DNA from: Candidatus Bathyarchaeia archaeon
GTDB lineage: Archaea; Thermoproteota; Bathyarchaeia; Bathyarchaeales; Bathycorpusculaceae
Direction: 5' to 3'
NCBI GenBank assembly: GCA_038883855.1
Contig: JAVZLH010000001.1
Location: 64,001-128,000 of the forward strand
Length of the DNA stretch: 64,000 nucleotides
Below, piece by piece: positions 14,446 to 55,737 of the stretch. The position numbers and the translations under genes are program-made. A model generated the notes under the pieces. It worked only from the letters and a program-made list of their open reading frames with translations. It was not told where the DNA came from and ran no database searches. Positions within the stretch are counted from its first letter, which is position 1; each line of letters opens with the position of its first letter.

Positions 14446-15513
14446 ATGCCTAAAGAATCATTGTGCCTCAAAGTCCCGAAAATTCACGGAGAAAAAGCCA
14501 TCAAATTAGTTAACGCTCTCAAAGTCACCGATAGAGAACTGGAAATTAAGCGAGACTCTGACTTCATTTACATTCCCATAACTCGCCAGCCACAAGAAAA
14601 CGAGCTGGAAACGCTTAAAAAACATCTACCAACTTTTGAAATTTCAAAACACCTTTTTCCTGAAAAAAAGCGTGCAAAAACCTTTATTGAGCTTCTTGAG
14701 GATAGGCTTCCACCTTATTTGTTGGCGAGTTTGCCACGGGCAATGGAGTTTGTCGGAGACATCGCCGTTGTGGAGATTCCGCCGGAACTTGACGCACACA
14801 AAGACATTATTGGCAAAGCAGTTTTGGAAGCGCATAAAAATGTGAAGACTGTGCTTGCCAAAGCTGGAGCAGTTGGTGGCGTCCACCGCGTTAGAGAGTT
14901 CAATGTCATCGCCGGAGAGCCAAAAACAACAACCATCCACAAAGAATATGGTTGCCAATACTACGTTGACCTTGCGAAGGCGTACTTCTCAGCGCGTCTG
15001 GCTTATGAACACAAAAGAGTGGCGTCTCTTGTTAGGGATGGTGAAACTGTCATAGACATGTTCGCCGGAGTAGGCCCCTTCTCCATTCTTATAGCGAGAA
15101 CTCATGAAAGGGTGAAGGTTTACGCCATTGACGTTAACTCTTATGCGGTTGAACTTTTGAGGAATAATATTAAGCTTAACAGAGTTGAAGACAAAGTCCG
15201 CCCATTGTTAGGCGATGCAAGACAGATCATTGAAGAAAGGCTTGTGGGCGTTGCAGACCGCGTGATAATGAATCTCCCAGAAAAAGCCATAGAGTTCGCA
15301 GATGTAGCCTGTAAGGCGCTGAAGCCTGAGGGCGGCGTGGTTCACTTCTACAGTTTCGTTGATGCAAATAATTCTTTGGAAAGTGTGAAGCTTCGTTTTA
15401 TAGAAACCGTCGAGAAATCTGGTCGTAGAGTGGAGAAAATTCTTTTTTCAAGGTTTGTCCGTGAGACAGCACCCTATGAGTGGCAAGTTGTTCTGGACGC
15501 ATTAGTGCACTAA
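14446..15513 (+). CDS. trm5: tRNA (guanine-37 N1) methyltransferase Trm5 family
   Basis: VGDIAVVE, HKEYGC, YFSARL, DMFAGVGPF, DRVIMNLP. Confidence 0.92.
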   Translation: MPKESLCLKVPKIHGEKAIKLVNALKVTDRELEIKRDSDFIYIPITRQPQENELETLKKHLPTFEISKHLFPEKKRAKTFIELLEDRLPPYLLASLPRAMEFVGDIAVVEIPPELDAHKDIIGKAVLEAHKNVKTVLAKAGAVGGVHRVREFNVIAGEPKTTTIHKEYGCQYYVDLAKAYFSARLAYEHKRVASLVRDGETVIDMFAGVGPFSILIARTHERVKVYAIDVNSYAVELLRNNIKLNRVEDKVRPLLGDARQIIEERLVGVADRVIMNLPEKAIEFADVACKALKPEGGVVHFYSFVDANNSLESVKLRFIETVEKSGRRVEKILFSRFVRETAPYEWQVVLDALVH

Positions 15514-15935
15514 ACTTCCGCCATAATCGTGATTTTTACCTCTTGCTTAGGGTTCCTTAGTTTCTCCACAAGTTTCCTAGATAAGTTGCATGCTGCCTTA
15601 TCCGCTTTGATGGCTAGGGTTCGACTGCAAACATAATCACTCTTTCTAACAACAATGTCTGTTGGATGTGTCAAAATTAGTTTTGGACTTCCAAAAGCCT
15701 TTACGACTTCAGCGACTTCTCCAGTTTGGATGCGCATGATGATTTTGGCGTTTTCTTTGCATAAACTTTCTTTAAATTGTGGGTTTAGGTCTGCTAAGGC
15801 TTTGTTTGCTGATACAGCGATGATGCAGTCACCTTTTTTTGAAAGATTTTTCTCTTTTGTGATTTCTAAAGTCGTTTTGTGTGTAGCAAGGATGTTTTTG
15901 TGTCCCCAAGCTTGAATTTCCTCTTTTATTTGCAT
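15510..15935 (-). CDS. DUF371 family protein
   Basis: GHKNILATHKTTLEITKE, GDCIIAV, DIVVRKSDY, ADKAA. Confidence 0.88.
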   Translation of the reverse strand: MQIKEEIQAWGHKNILATHKTTLEITKEKNLSKKGDCIIAVSANKALADLNPQFKESLCKENAKIIMRIQTGEVAEVVKAFGSPKLILTHPTDIVVRKSDYVCSRTLAIKADKAACNLSRKLVEKLRNPKQEVKITIMAEV

Positions 15936-16936
15936 GGATTTTCTCCTTTGCTGACGGATTGGCTGCATTGCTGTTCAAGAATTTCTATCGAGTCAATTTT
16001 TCCATCACCATCTAAGTCGAATCCTTGTATAACAGCCGCAAAAGTGTCTTCGCCCTTATAGTCTTTCAATGTTTTCTTACAAAAGTTGGTTAAAGCGAGA
16101 ACGCATGCCTTTGTGCCCACTGCCTTGTTTCCAGCCAAAACTATAATGCGCTTGTTTTTATCCCATGGATTCACGATTTTTGCCACCAACCCTATGGCAT
16201 CCGCCGTATAAACGTTCTTTGTCTTTTCAGAGACCAAACCGCCGAATAAGAAACCCTGCTCGGAATGTTGCATGTTGAACTTTATCGGCAAATAGTCGTT
16301 AACCTCTTGCGTCAGCAAGTTGGTTCCTGGTCCGCCGACGAGGATAAGGTTGTTCTCTTCCTCTTTTTCAGCCTTAACGTCAACATCAAGCTTTATGGCA
16401 AATTCTTCTGGCGTCTTGGTGAATTGTCCTAAAAAGAATGTTAAGTGAGAGGCGTAATGCCCGTCTCTAGCGCTTGTTTTGAAGGGTCCGTGGGGCATTG
16501 GGCTGCCCACAACAATTTTTCCGTTGAAGGCGCCATTTTCCTTTGTGAATTCCTTGAAGAATGCTTGAATCTGCTCGTCCATTCCTATGGGCGGGAAACC
16601 TTGTATTGGCTTGTATCCTTCTGGTAATTCTATTCCAAAGGCAAGTGAGACTGCCTTGTAATATTTGGCTATGGCGCCTTTCTTTTCCTCTTCTCTCACA
16701 ACTGTTATGGCTCCAGCTTTCGCCAATTTTCTGATGTGGTAATAGACTTTTTGTTCGTGAATCCCTAATTGTTTGGCTATTTCCAGCGGGTACATCTCCT
16801 TTTCAGAGAGCATCGTCAGAATTTTCCATGTAAGTTTGTTCAAAATAGTCTTAAGTGTCTGGGAGTCTGTGAACATTTTGATTTCTTTAACTTTCCCAGC
16901 GGCGCCTTCCTCGAGAAACAGTAGTTTTTTACTCAT
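15926..16936 (-). CDS. ArsR-like winged-HTH regulator with large C-terminal domain
   Basis: EMYPLEIAKQLGIHEQKVYYHIRKL HTH; NLILVGGPGTN; terminal DLDGDG motif. Confidence 0.8.
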   Translation of the reverse strand: MSKKLLFLEEGAAGKVKEIKMFTDSQTLKTILNKLTWKILTMLSEKEMYPLEIAKQLGIHEQKVYYHIRKLAKAGAITVVREEEKKGAIAKYYKAVSLAFGIELPEGYKPIQGFPPIGMDEQIQAFFKEFTKENGAFNGKIVVGSPMPHGPFKTSARDGHYASHLTFFLGQFTKTPEEFAIKLDVDVKAEKEEENNLILVGGPGTNLLTQEVNDYLPIKFNMQHSEQGFLFGGLVSEKTKNVYTADAIGLVAKIVNPWDKNKRIIVLAGNKAVGTKACVLALTNFCKKTLKDYKGEDTFAAVIQGFDLDGDGKIDSIEILEQQCSQSVSKGENPCK

Positions 16937-19351: not shown

Positions 19352-21181
19352 ATGTGTGGAATCTTTGGCTGTGTACTGAAAGAAGGAAACGCCGCACCTG
19401 TAATACACGCTGCCCTTAAAAGGCTTGAATACCGCGGCTATGACTCAGTTGGAGAGGCAACTCTCCACGAAGGTAAACTGTACATAAAGAAGGATCAAGG
19501 AAAAATAGACGAAGTCCATGCAATTCACAATTTAGATGATATGCCTGGAAGAATAGGCATTGGGCACACAAGATGGGCTACACACGGCGCACCACTGAAA
19601 GTTAATGCACATCCCCATGTTGATTGTAAAGGACAAATTGCCTTAGTTCACAATGGCATTATAGAGAATTTCAACGAGTTAAAGTTGGAACTGGAGAATC
19701 AAGGGCACATTTTTGTGTCAAAAACCGACACTGAAGTATTGACCCACCTTATTGAAGAAAATTTTAAAGCCAACCCTTCTTTGAGCTTGACCGACGCTGT
19801 TCTCGCGGCCATTAAAAGAGTTGAAGGGTCCTACGCCATTGCTGTTATCTCAACAAAGGAACCCGACAAAATAGTCTGTGCAAGAAACGAAAGCCCCCTT
19901 GTAATTGGGATAGGAGAATCGTCAATTTACTGTGCCTCAGACATTCCAGCTTTTCTTCCCCTAACCAACAGAGCTGTCATAATTGACGATGGGGAACTTG
20001 TCACTCTCACTCAAGAAGGCTTCGAAATCAAGAAAATCCGCGACCAAAGCCTCGTTAAGCGAGAGCCAAAACTCATTGATTGGTCGCCTGAAATGGCCGT
20101 CAAACAAGGCTATCCCCACTTTATGCTTAAAGAAATTCATGAACAGCCCATCTGTCTGCGGAACACCCTTAGACTGCAGGAACATTACCTTGATTTGATG
20201 GCGACATTTCTCGACCGCGCCAAAGAAGTTTTCCTAGTGGCTTGTGGAACATCCTATCACGCATGCTTAGCCGCATCCTACATGTTTTCTAAACTTGCTT
20301 TTTTGGCGACCTATCCCGTAATAGCCTCAGAATTCATCGAGCAACACGGCAAGTCCGTAAACATTGACAGCACAATATTGGCGGTGAGCCAGTCAGGCGA
20401 AACAGCAGACACATTGGCATCTGTTAACGCGGCGCGTCAAAGAGCAGCCACAATTTTAGGGTTGACAAACGTGATCGGCTCAACTCTCACAAGGATTTCC
20501 CGTGTCTACATCAGTCAACAGTCTGGTCCAGAGATTGGAGTGGCTGCAACAAAAACGTTCACTTCGCAACTTTCCGTTTTGGCGCAGCTAGCCCTTAGAC
20601 TGGCTAAGAAGAGAGGTAAGGTTTCACAGGACGAAATGGACTTCTTGGCAGAGAAGCTTGAAAAGCTTCCAGACATTGTTGAAACAATAATTAAAACACA
20701 AGAGGAGAAGGTTAAACAAATAGCTAAAAAGTACAAGGACGCTAAAGTGTTCTTTTTCTTAGGCCGCGGAATCAGCACCGCCACTGCCTATGAGGGCAGA
20801 CTGAAACTCATGGAAATAGCCTACGTGCCAGCCATAGCCTTCCCAGCTGGAGAAAGCAAACATGGTCCAATAAGCCTAATAGAACCTGGTTTCCCCGTGG
20901 TTTTCATCTGCCCCAAAGATGAGACGCATAAAACTTTGATAGGTAACATAATGGAGATGAAAGCCAGAGGGGCCTCAATAATTGCCATAATCGAGGAAGG
21001 AGACGAAGAGATTAAGAGGTTGGCCGATGACTATGTTGAAGTGCCTAAGGGCGTTCCAGAAATATTGTCGCCCATACCCTTCGTGATTCCCTTACAACTT
21101 TTAGCATATTACATGAGTATTGAAAAGGGGTATGACCCAGATACTCCGAGAAATCTAGCGAAGTCAGTTACAGTAAAATGA
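19352..21181 (+). CDS. glmS: Glutamine--fructose-6-phosphate aminotransferase
   Basis: N-terminal MCGI, GHTRWATHG, SQSGETADT, VAATKTF, PRNLAKSVTV. Confidence 0.97.
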   Translation: MCGIFGCVLKEGNAAPVIHAALKRLEYRGYDSVGEATLHEGKLYIKKDQGKIDEVHAIHNLDDMPGRIGIGHTRWATHGAPLKVNAHPHVDCKGQIALVHNGIIENFNELKLELENQGHIFVSKTDTEVLTHLIEENFKANPSLSLTDAVLAAIKRVEGSYAIAVISTKEPDKIVCARNESPLVIGIGESSIYCASDIPAFLPLTNRAVIIDDGELVTLTQEGFEIKKIRDQSLVKREPKLIDWSPEMAVKQGYPHFMLKEIHEQPICLRNTLRLQEHYLDLMATFLDRAKEVFLVACGTSYHACLAASYMFSKLAFLATYPVIASEFIEQHGKSVNIDSTILAVSQSGETADTLASVNAARQRAATILGLTNVIGSTLTRISRVYISQQSGPEIGVAATKTFTSQLSVLAQLALRLAKKRGKVSQDEMDFLAEKLEKLPDIVETIIKTQEEKVKQIAKKYKDAKVFFFLGRGISTATAYEGRLKLMEIAYVPAIAFPAGESKHGPISLIEPGFPVVFICPKDETHKTLIGNIMEMKARGASIIAIIEEGDEEIKRLADDYVEVPKGVPEILSPIPFVIPLQLLAYYMSIEKGYDPDTPRNLAKSVTVK

Positions 21182-21308
21182 AAATAGTTTAGACACAGCC
21201 TCTGTTTTACCTGAAAAGTTCCAAAAGGCAAACCGCACGTTGCTATTTCCTTTTTGAATCAAATACGTTAAAAAGGGCGCTCTGCTTTTATTTGTATGGT
21301 GCGAAGGT

Positions 21309-22017
21309 TTGGAAAAGAAGGAATGGGAAAAACTCATCGAAAACTTAGTAAAAGAAGGCGTGCTTCGCTCGCCAAAAGTTATCAAGGCCATGCGTTCTGT
21401 GCCTCGAGCGAAATTTCTGCCGGAAAACATGCAGTCCTACAGCGCAGTGGACACGCCGCTTCCAATTGGTTTTGGGCAAACAATTTCGGCGCCACATAGC
21501 TTCAGCCTTCCGCTGAGCTAGGCGATACATGGTTGCAATAATGAATGAAGCCCTCCAGTTGGAAGTCGGCCATAAAGTGCTGGAAGTTGGAGCGGGTTCG
21601 GGGTGGCATGCAGCCACGATAGCCGAGATAATCGCGCCAAGCGATGCGCCTAGAAGCGGGTGGGGACATGTATACACTGTTGAGATAATTGAGGGATTAG
21701 CTGAGTTTGCTAGAAGAAACGTTATGAAGGCTGGATATGGCGACCGCGTCACAATAATTTGCGCTGACGGGTCGATGGGCTACCCTGAAAAGGCGCCCTA
21801 CGATAGGATAATTGTGACGGCTGCGGCTCCAGATGTTCCAGCCCCTCTCATTGAACAGTTGAAGCCTGGTGGAATAATGCTTATTCCTGTTGGGAGTGCA
21901 CACTTGTTTCAAAGTCTCATAAAAGTTGTAAAAGAACCTGATGGAAAAATTAAAAAGGAGAATCTTTGTGGTGTTGCTTTTGTGCCGTTAACTGGGCGTT
22001 ATGGTCACAAAATTTAG
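21309..22017 (+). CDS. pcm: Protein-L-isoaspartate O-methyltransferase, interrupted by a candidate 31-nt intron (join 21309..21495, 21527..22017; 225 aa)
   Basis: Upstream part: [22 protein letters not shown]. Downstream part: [38 protein letters not shown]. Removing the insert restores the frame. Confidence 0.92.
21496..21526 (+). other. Candidate bulge-helix-bulge (tRNA-endonuclease-type) mRNA intron in pcm
   Basis: CGCC(21490-93)/GGCG(21521-24) 4-bp helix; 3-nt bulges ACA (21494-96) and ATA (21525-27); intron hairpin TAGC-T-TCAGC/GCTGA-GCTA; canonical cut positions rejoin CCA CAC ATG. Confidence 0.85.
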
Positions 22018-22045
22018 ATGTTGTCTGGAGTTGTTAAAGAGTTTA

Positions 22046-23080
22046 TTATCCAAACCATTTTTCTAGGGTTGTTTTCCCTCTTAGCTTGGTTATTCCCTTT
22101 TGCATTTTTTCCAGCGCCTTTTTTACACGGTCTTCTGAGAAGTCTCTTTCTCTACAGATGAAGTTCACTACCCCTTCCACGTCAGGTTCCTTCCACTCGA
22201 TTTTATAATTGTCCGTTACCTTTGGTCTGAGGAATATCTCCCTAATTCTTTGGGGGTCTACTGGAAAATCCGCGTTTTTGAGATGGGGCAAAGCCTTTTC
22301 GATGCTTCCATGCTCCTTTATCAGTTTCAGGGCAGTTTTGGGTCCCAGTCCCTTTACGCCTTCTGGGTTAAAGTCTGTTCCTATCAGTATACCCACGTCA
22401 ACGAGTTGTTCGTAGGTTATTCCGCATTCTTTCAGAACTTGTTCCAGCTCAACTACTTCTGGTATGACTTCAATATAGACGTTTTTGCCTGGTAGTTTCC
22501 GCCGCCCCGAAATCGTCACGTTTCTTACAAGTCTTGGCGCTCCAAAAAGTAAGCTGTCGTAATCTTGGCTTGCGCAGTAATCGGCGTCTCCACGCTTCAC
22601 CACATGGGCTGCTTGCGCTTCTCCTTCACTTGGAGCTTGTATCCAAGGGATTCCCATTAAATCTAAGAGGCGTTTGCTGTCTTCCGCCATGTAATCCTTT
22701 AAGCGTGAGGTGGCCTGTGCATACATACGGGCTTCTTCAAGCTTGCCTTCCTTAAGGGCTTGCTCATACTTTATTAAGGCTTCTTCTTTCGCCCTCATAC
22801 GCCTTTTAATTTCAACTTCTTTAAGTGCAGGCGGTGTTCCATCAAAAATGTAGATGGGTTTTATGCCTAACTCCACAAGGTTGCTTGTTCTATAAAGGAG
22901 CCCACTTAAGTGACTTGTAATCCTCCCGCTGCTGTCCTTTAGCGGCGTCCCGTCTGGCTGACGGATTATGGCTAAAAACTGGTACAAGGCGTTATAAGCG
23001 TCTATCGCTATGGCTTTTTCACTTAAATCCTCAAGCCTCACAGTCACTTTAGGAACAAGATCTCGGAGGTTTACTCCCAA
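22046..23080 (-). CDS. fen: Flap endonuclease 1
   Basis: Start at TTG (GVNLRDL); IDAYNALYQFL, QAPSEGEAQAA, SQDYDSLLFG, GTDFN, C-terminal PIP-like TTLEKWF. Confidence 0.96.
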   Translation of the reverse strand: MGVNLRDLVPKVTVRLEDLSEKAIAIDAYNALYQFLAIIRQPDGTPLKDSSGRITSHLSGLLYRTSNLVELGIKPIYIFDGTPPALKEVEIKRRMRAKEEALIKYEQALKEGKLEEARMYAQATSRLKDYMAEDSKRLLDLMGIPWIQAPSEGEAQAAHVVKRGDADYCASQDYDSLLFGAPRLVRNVTISGRRKLPGKNVYIEVIPEVVELEQVLKECGITYEQLVDVGILIGTDFNPEGVKGLGPKTALKLIKEHGSIEKALPHLKNADFPVDPQRIREIFLRPKVTDNYKIEWKEPDVEGVVNFICRERDFSEDRVKKALEKMQKGITKLRGKTTLEKWFG

Positions 23081-55185: not shown

Positions 55186-55737
55186 ATGGCAGCAGTAACT
55201 GAACCTTGGCAAACGGCAGAAATCCCAGGACCCAAAAAAGCTTTAGTCATAACAAAGGCTGATGTCGTTGCCGCCATGATTAAACGGGCGAAACACCCAA
55301 TACTAGTCGTGGGACATAAGACTGTCGAAACAGAGCTTGAAGGACGGAAACTAATCGACTACATGATTGACCTTGCGAAAAAAGCCAATATCCCAGTAGT
55401 AGCCACAGCCCACATAGTCAGCGATTTCACAAAAAGAGGCTATAAACCCGCTGGCTTCATGCCCGCTGTAGACATTGGAAACAGGCTTGTTGACGCCTCA
55501 TGGAATGGGATCGACGGCAAAGGACCGCATGACCTAGCTTTGTTCGTCGGTCTTCCATACTACATGGAATGGACAATCCTTTCTGGTCTAAAGCACTTCG
55601 CCCCCAACCTGAAAACAATAACCCTGGACAACGTGTATCAACCACACGCAAGCTGGTCGTTTCCAAATATTTCTGTTAAAGATTGGATAGAAAACCTCAA
55701 GTTAATAATAGGAAAATTTGAAGGAGGAAGTGAATGA
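55186..55737 (+). CDS. cdhB: ACDS epsilon subunit
   Basis: MIKRAKHP, W.G.DGKG.HDL, PHASWSF; operon position. Confidence 0.94.
   Translation: MAAVTEPWQTAEIPGPKKALVITKADVVAAMIKRAKHPILVVGHKTVETELEGRKLIDYMIDLAKKANIPVVATAHIVSDFTKRGYKPAGFMPAVDIGNRLVDASWNGIDGKGPHDLALFVGLPYYMEWTILSGLKHFAPNLKTITLDNVYQPHASWSFPNISVKDWIENLKLIIGKFEGGSE

Follow-up and report, generated by a model that had tools for sequence, protein, structure and literature searches.

The window, by which is meant the whole 64,000-nucleotide stretch of Candidatus Bathyarchaeia archaeon DNA that was analysed, raises the question of whether a pcm gene that is broken in two can still give rise to a whole protein and, if so, how. In the ORF list the gene appears as one frame of 70 amino acids (21309–21521), closed by an in-frame TAG at 21519–21521, and a second of 162 amino acids (21529–22017), and a 31-nt insert (21496–21526) interrupts the coding sequence within the SAPH|M motif. 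The two halves tile the PIMT profile NF010549, matching positions 3–64 and then 65–214 with neither gap nor overlap, and they also tile NF001453 and TIGR00080, which places the gene in the PIMT (Pcm) family; the Pcm of an intronless relative (L008) matches the solved PIMTs 1jg1 and 2yxe. Deletion of the insert generates a 225-residue ORF containing TISAPHMV. The gene is the single pcm-grade match in the source genome (85% complete) and is flanked by glmS on one side and by a convergent fen1 on the other.

The first-pass annotation of this locus had proposed that the insert is removed as a bulge-helix-bulge (BHB) intron. Its coordinates for the helix (21490–93 with 21521–24), the bulges (21494–96 and 21525–27) and the TAG are all correct, the normal 225-aa Pcm with its restored motif was reproduced, and the exon-side helix is indeed as weak as it was said to be, consisting of only one pair, G21489–C21528. 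The insert is, with high probability, a genuine intron of the archaeal splicing endonuclease within the pcm mRNA, and at the level of sequence the helix, bulges, register and enzymes belonging to such an intron are all present. The predicted features, all on the forward strand, are as follows.

21309..21495, + strand: pcm exon 1, codons 1–62 and the first base of the His codon, with a probable TTG start; PIMT profile positions 3–64
21496..21526, + strand: putative intron of 31 nt, interrupting the His codon of S-A-P-H-M in phase 1, placed by the register test and by same-site inserts in relatives
21527..22017, + strand: pcm exon 2, the last two bases of the His codon and M-V onwards to the stop, including the SAM-binding motif; profile positions 65–214
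21490..21493, + strand: central helix, exon strand, helix position 2 being the wobble base of the Ala codon
21494..21496, + strand: 5' bulge of 3 nt, predicted cut after its second base (21495/21496)
21497..21520, + strand: intron-side stem-loop (h'), the 3' end of which overlaps the in-frame TAG at 21519–21521
21521..21524, + strand: central helix, intron strand, pairing with 21490–21493
21525..21527, + strand: 3' bulge of 3 nt, predicted cut after its second base (21526/21527)
21489..21528, + strand: exon-side closing pair G21489–C21528, a single pair, so that the outer helix is minimal and the BHB relaxed

The relaxed BHB into which the pre-mRNA is predicted to fold has a 4-bp helix, two 3-nt bulges, a long intron-side stem and a 1-bp exon-side closure. 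In each bulge an (alpha-beta)2 EndA would cut between the second and third bases; RtcB would then join the exons, the His codon being built from both, after which translation of the spliced mRNA would yield a normal 225-aa PIMT. The released 31-nt intron may be circularised, and any unspliced RNA would run into an early stop, at codon 71 in the source genome.

Taken alone, the window is a poor guide to these details. Four neighbouring 31-nt deletions (starting at 21496–21499) each restore the motif in the source genome, so that the cut register is provable from the relatives and not from the window. The 81-nt junction folds with a z-score of -1.22, and 21 of 200 shuffled sequences fold as well; the pair G21489–C21528, which is the sole closure of the 3' bulge, is absent from the minimum-energy fold. 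The argument that geometry, register and restored motif would hardly coincide by chance consequently loses force for the window by itself, where four deletions fit and the fold is ordinary, but it stands once relatives are brought in.

An unbiased set of relatives was obtained by a protein search of 61 genomes, a procedure carrying no bias toward the insert, which returned 58 pcm loci in 57 genomes. An insert lies at the same nucleotide in 45 of these loci (44 of the 57 related genomes) and the other 13 loci are uninterrupted. Both genomes of the same genus carry it as well, in agreement with the claim that the insert is no sequencing indel. The 45 inserts are 28–46 nt long, are divided 21, 15 and 9 between the three frames, and all differ in their interiors. 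When all sources are taken together there are 158 distinct same-site inserts of 25–48 nt. Such a series bears directly on the idea of an assembly error or a pseudogene, which can draw on the unremarkable folding of the single genome: the finding of 158 different inserts that covary, all at a single nucleotide and spread over two phyla, argues against it, as do the long spliced frames and low dN/dS values described below, and its probability is negligible.

The 4-bp central helix is fully paired in 45/45 inserts of the unbiased set and in all 158 distinct inserts, three of its pairs and the His bases being forced by the search pattern for the 116 loci that entered the larger set through a pattern scan. 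Among the 158, GGCG is found with CGCC in 138, GGTG with CACC in 16 and GGTG with CGCC in 4, and a compensatory change between exon and intron, from G-C to A-U, is seen in 16. Alignment A1 comprises 43 aligned inserts, L033 and L049 (40 and 46 nt) being excluded, and the exon strand of the helix occupies its columns 11–14. Here three of the four central-helix pairs are invariant, whilst two-sided changes occur at all five terminal pairs of the intron stem and at one helix pair. In this alignment 99.5% of the cells are paired, and the 55 two-sided changes compare with 14.0 after shuffling, with 0 of 500 shuffles as high, in a test that is inflated by the relatedness of the sequences; control structures slid along the alignment pair in only 17–38%. 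The pairs of the intron stem take several forms each (the first, for example, UA, CG or GC), and over the 45 inserts the unbroken stem averages 7.2 bp, whereas none of 500 shuffles takes this mean above 1.2. It had been anticipated that inserts in Bathyarchaeia pcm genes would vary and that the 4-bp helix and 3-nt bulges would be kept with covariation, and this is what the alignment displays.

The two bulges are closed differently. The 5' bulge is closed by the covarying stem, which has at least 3 bp in 156 of the 158 inserts, and the 3' bulge by one pair, G-C in 154 and G-U in 4, which corresponds to a relaxed form; as the exon-side G and C are also fixed by the protein, this closing pair is no independent evidence. 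The exon nonetheless bears a mark of the pairing at its Ala codon, which is GCG in 42 of the 45 intron-bearing loci; the other 3 have GCA together with the matching change in the intron strand. Of the 13 intronless loci, only 2 have GCG. Judged by this difference, the Ala codon is adapted to the pairing of the intron.

The bulges also reveal where the cuts are likely to fall. In the 5' bulge, positions 1–2 are coding and nearly fixed and position 3, which belongs to the intron, varies between A, T and G (n=158), and in the 3' bulge positions 1–2 vary and position 3 is A in 158/158. Fixed bases are therefore the ones that would remain in the mRNA after EndA cleavage, and variable bases the ones that would be lost. 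The EndA register, which cuts each bulge behind its second base, restores A-P-H-M in 45/45 and 158/158 inserts. Registers shifted by +1, +2, +3 and -1 restore A-P-H-M-V in 42, 40, 28 and 3 of the 45, and A-P-H-M in 121, 110, 77 and 15 of the 158 (next best 121), the His bases being pattern-forced for the pattern-found loci in the counts over 158. This uniqueness of register is the strongest evidence that the sequences offer, and it suggests selection on EndA chemistry beyond the hairpin alone.

The same observations weigh on two ways in which the insert might be accommodated without splicing. Translational recoding, by ribosome bypass or frameshifting across the hairpin, would be in keeping with the stop codon within the hairpin, a feature of known bypass sites such as that of T4 gene 60. 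The His codon, however, needs one base from exon 1 and two from exon 2, there are no matched take-off and landing codons, and the insert lengths fall in all three frames (24/45 are not +1) and range over 25–48 nt. Because the His codon is formed only by joining the exons, ribosomal bypass is excluded, and recoding in general is extremely improbable. A permanently split gene, in which the hairpin is kept and the halves are made as separate polypeptides that assemble into PIMT, is very unlikely. The second half would start from ATG 21529, which lies directly after the insert, with GGTG/GGCG as its ribosome-binding site, and the GGTG variants do resemble the Shine-Dalgarno consensus. Databases, moreover, hold the 162-aa half as a PIMT. 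Yet 138/158 inserts have GGCG, and the choice of G or T tracks the exon Ala codon, which fits pairing and not a Shine-Dalgarno role. Without splicing, several species would have Leu, Gln or Arg in place of the conserved His, and the first half ends in a tail that is conserved neither in length nor in sequence.

Removal of the insert as an intron also agrees with how the protein has evolved. dN/dS lies at 0.02–0.16 in both exons over ten pairs from Bathyarchaeia and Asgard, one value being saturated; in the comparisons that involve the window gene it is 0.04–0.16 for exon 1 and 0.04–0.08 for exon 2 where not saturated. Values so far below 1 in both exons indicate that pcm is alive and under purifying selection. 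The spliced ORF reaches at least 215 aa in 146 of 185 intron loci, the remainder being cut by locus or contig ends where individually checked. Introns with a length of 3n contain an in-frame stop in 31/31 cases, against 88/127 for other lengths, although one and the same stop position accounts for 25 of the 31, and related introns are not independent cases. These stops suggest selection against read-through into a Pcm with an insertion in its motif.

A further possibility is that EndA cleavage serves mainly to destroy or regulate pcm mRNA, ligation being rare and little protein being made. Yeast TSEN is reported to cleave mRNAs for decay (PMC10485636), and pcm is dispensable at least in genus g17 of family f1, where no match to the gene is present in 6/6 genomes of 90–100% completeness and where it seems to have been lost, as far as these assemblies tell. 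Purifying selection on both exons and a His codon restored in 158/158 inserts, on the other hand, need an mRNA that is ligated and translated, and destruction as the main outcome is highly improbable. A regulatory layer may lie on top of pcm splicing.

The enzymes for splicing are encoded in the source genome, which has an intact RtcB and two EndA paralogues, encoded on contigs C10 and C2. Crenarchaeal catalytic subunits (2cv8, E 3e-45) are the nearest match to the first paralogue, which has their lineage loop together with the Tyr/His/Lys positions; the second is without the catalytic-type His. Two-subunit EndA with such features is reported to cut relaxed motifs (PMC5829648, PMC12397907, PMC2738675), which fits the 1-bp outer helix of the pcm BHB. 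As the exon-side helix is a single pair, the predicted cleavage at the 3' bulge would hinge on an enzyme of relaxed specificity. All of ten Asgard genomes, five with the intron and five without, contain two EndA paralogues of the same two kinds, so that the type of enzyme does not explain the distribution of the intron. Covariation, the register across species, purifying selection on both exons and the presence of EndA and RtcB thus all speak for the BHB intron that was first proposed.

How widely is the intron distributed? A pattern scan of one genome per species gave at least 120 matches, from which 4 bacterial chance matches were dropped; the remaining 116, among the matches listed, are pcm with an insert from Bathyarchaeota (111), Thermoproteota (2), an uncultured archaeon (1), Jordarchaeia (1) and Wukongarchaeia (1). 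The Jordarchaeia pcm (L108) is 54% identical to the window pcm and the pcm-fen1 arrangement is kept. The phylum of this record, presumably Asgard, provided 50 loci, of which 17 have the intron, 31 are intronless, 1 is unresolved and 1 was set aside. The 17 are of the non-Bathyarchaeia type of pcm; the set-aside locus, a second copy in its genome, is of the Bathyarchaeia type. When 400 genomes of the phylum were searched with the pattern, the same 17 came up again, along with that second copy and 4 chance matches in intronless genes (4 of 22, dropped). Of the Asgard groups searched, only a few small ones hence have the intron. L284 and L156 were left out of the Asgard count as their intron equals that of Bathyarchaeia locus L128. 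L284 (G360:C126) is the second pcm in an Asgard-phylum genome and L156 is labelled Wukongarchaeum; both were probably misbinned or transferred recently.

The surroundings of the gene were compared as well. The Jordarchaeia pcm is flanked upstream by a methyltransferase, which we take to resemble Trm5, and by a small conserved ORF. Counterparts of these two and of fen1 are also near the window pcm, with other genes between them, the shared regions being window 14446–15968 and L191:54–3053 (methyltransferase and small ORF upstream, fen1 downstream). The neighbourhood common to the two loci is old and conserved.

In a sample of 301 genomes of the window's own phylum, the best 30 loci by score are all uninterrupted. 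Among the low-scoring families, f25 and f36 carry an intron equal or close to Bathyarchaeota introns and f33 is uninterrupted, and the pcm loci of f22 and f16 are ended by contig ends. Trees of pcm were built from thinned sets of 198 and 120 of the 228 distinct proteins. In the 120-protein tree the main Bathyarchaeia pcm clade has 97% SH-aLRT; its basal genes bear the intron, intronless ones are nested within it at about seven points, and the intron-bearing Asgard pcm forms four groups outside. The intronless families f13 and f14 of the same class lie outside the main clade or sister to it. At least 12 changes of intron state are required on this tree and the 198-protein tree is similar. The nesting of intronless alleles among intron-bearing ones points to repeated precise loss, which is well supported on these trees. 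The main Bathyarchaeia pcm clade would thus have started out with the intron and lost it precisely several times; several Asgard groups have it at the same nucleotide. Joining the Asgard intron-bearers with Bathyarchaeia pcm is not rejected by an AU test (p 0.47), the deep branches being weak, and the trees consequently do not discriminate between vertical descent, an old transfer and recurrent gain at a favourable site.

One tentative scenario, which we hold to be possible and on balance rather doubtful, is that a single ancient insertion into pcm predates the split between Bathyarchaeia and Asgard and was lost precisely many times, that some Asgard splice mRNA, and that the intron may switch repair through EndA/RtcB. 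If this is true, some Asgard archaea splice protein-coding mRNA with the tRNA machinery, and the intron may tie protein repair to EndA/RtcB activity as a prokaryotic counterpart of IRE1/RtcB. The hosts are an abundant sediment lineage and the Asgard archaea, the group closest to eukaryotes, and the locus bears on two questions, mRNA splicing in Asgard and precise intron loss in prokaryotes. Natural variation among the pcm inserts is unusually rich and amounts to a mutational series from which the splice register can be fixed. There is a practical side too, as public collections call pcm as a truncated 162-aa protein, and work on the gene content of these lineages can therefore miss such genes.

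Introns of this kind are already known but form a very thinly populated class; the mechanism is a known one, and the position is shared with Asgard archaea. Watanabe 2002 and Yoshinari 2006 are reportedly the sources for the cbf5 pre-mRNA intron. That intron is found in Desulfurococcales and Sulfolobales (Yokobori 2009, PMC2738675). It resembles the pcm intron in being short, in lying within coding sequence, in its relaxed BHB with cuts (predicted ones in pcm) between bulge positions 2 and 3, in its hetero-oligomeric EndA, in combining a variable interior with conserved borders and in its lineage-specific loss (PMC2738675). The cbf5 case has support from cDNA and in vitro splicing (PMC2738675), whereas the pcm intron is known here from its sequence. 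It also differs in that the pcm host gene serves protein repair and not RNA modification, its lineages are Bathyarchaeia and Asgard, its site is the same nucleotide in two phyla and its losses appear more numerous. Membership of the cbf5 intron family by homology was rejected, since the host gene is pcm and the likeness is one of mechanism only.

The first-pass annotation had regarded cbf5 as the only well-established archaeal mRNA case. It is the sole coding-sequence case found, and is named as the only earlier mRNA BHB intron in PMC7714728 (2020); a spliced BHB intron is, however, also reported for the 5' UTR of Haloferax HVO_1309 (PMC7714728, PMC10485636), and PMC10485636 (2023) counts two archaeal genes, cbf5 and HVO_1309. 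HVO_1309 of Haloferax volcanii has an mRNA BHB that is processed by EndA, as is predicted for pcm, and its splicing is reported in RNA-seq; its intron, however, lies in the 5' UTR and leaves the reading frame unbroken, and its EndA is homodimeric (PMC7714728, PMC10485636). Non-canonical archaeal tRNA introns (HBh' or relaxed BHB) share the motif, size range and enzymes (bioRxiv 10.64898/2026.10.13.758758), and differ in that the host of the pcm intron is an mRNA; the main text of this Asgard tRNA intron census contains neither 'mRNA' nor 'cbf5'. No report of the pcm intron was found in the literature searched, which leaves aside most subscription journals. Within that literature, and if the sequence is read correctly, pcm is the second archaeal case of an intron in coding sequence after cbf5, alongside one 5' UTR case.

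The IRE1/RtcB system carries out non-spliceosomal splicing of HAC1/XBP1 mRNA, removing a short frameshifting intron. It combines an endonuclease with a tRNA ligase, as the pcm system is predicted to do, and its product acts in protein quality control, a likeness that is one of analogy only. The nuclease and motif are different, and regulation of pcm splicing is suggested only by the analogy. Ligation of XBP1 by tRNA ligase is reported in PMC13586215.

Spliced RNA was sought in public reads and metagenomes, and none was seen; no RNA run was indexed for this stretch, and the two runs that were indexed are probably DNA. Exact skips of 21496–21526 in these two runs, at 80% likeness (one contig in X1 and three in X2), were not taken as spliced RNA; the contigs are about 83% identical to the window in the two records listed in full, and intronless relatives explain them. 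In the same way, 22 metagenome matches to the intronless junction with intron-type codons were rejected as cDNA, since none of them exceeds 82% identity to the intron-bearing genes compared and they so come from other species. These negatives weigh neither for nor against splicing. Soil metatranscriptomes accompanied by near-complete Bathyarchaeia genomes are listed in PMC12918454.

Other classes of intron fit poorly. A group I or group II intron, or an Rfam family, was rejected in view of the 31-nt length and of a search of 21000–22200 against Rfam that gave no match at E <= 1. Nor does the insert behave as a mobile intron with a homing endonuclease: the largest insert is 48 nt, in scans whose patterns cover inserts to about 50 nt, and a simple regular expression detected no LAGLIDADG-like motif in 725 ORFs from 101 loci (47 with the intron), about 1.5 kb being covered on each side.

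The further mRNA introns that the first-pass annotation inferred for this lineage did not emerge from the source genome. A scan that covers strict BHB motifs beyond the first 20 codons of genes, and that is blind to relaxed ones, ranks pcm first among 393 passing of 10,339 folded candidates and first of 747 coding-joined candidates, and nothing else is convincing; the other candidates inspected were rejected as they resemble gene-gene junctions, by appearance and not by family comparison. Neither rnhB nor carB has an insert here, and cbf5 was not found above the family cut-off in the genome, which is 85% complete. A strong 53-nt BHB-like hairpin (-21.4 kcal/mol) lies at window 55507–55559 (+); it is not a coding join on both sides and has no Rfam match at the gathering score.

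Some individual genomes deserve mention. L252 (G130:C9) is a second, divergent pcm paralogue with a 21-codon insert of tandem-duplication type that contains two stops and is not a BHB. L015 and L058 (G017) are near-identical intron-bearing copies of pcm, one intron base apart, and probably reflect a strain mixture in the assembly. In the source genome, G000, ARAGORN reports several tRNA genes in which the intron position or the anticodon is unusual, at C8:17055–17168(-), C2:40407–40504(-), C14:16335–16457(-), C15:8350–8440(-) and C2:30916–31008(+). Several of these look as though they may contain non-canonical introns, which would be consistent with an EndA of relaxed specificity.
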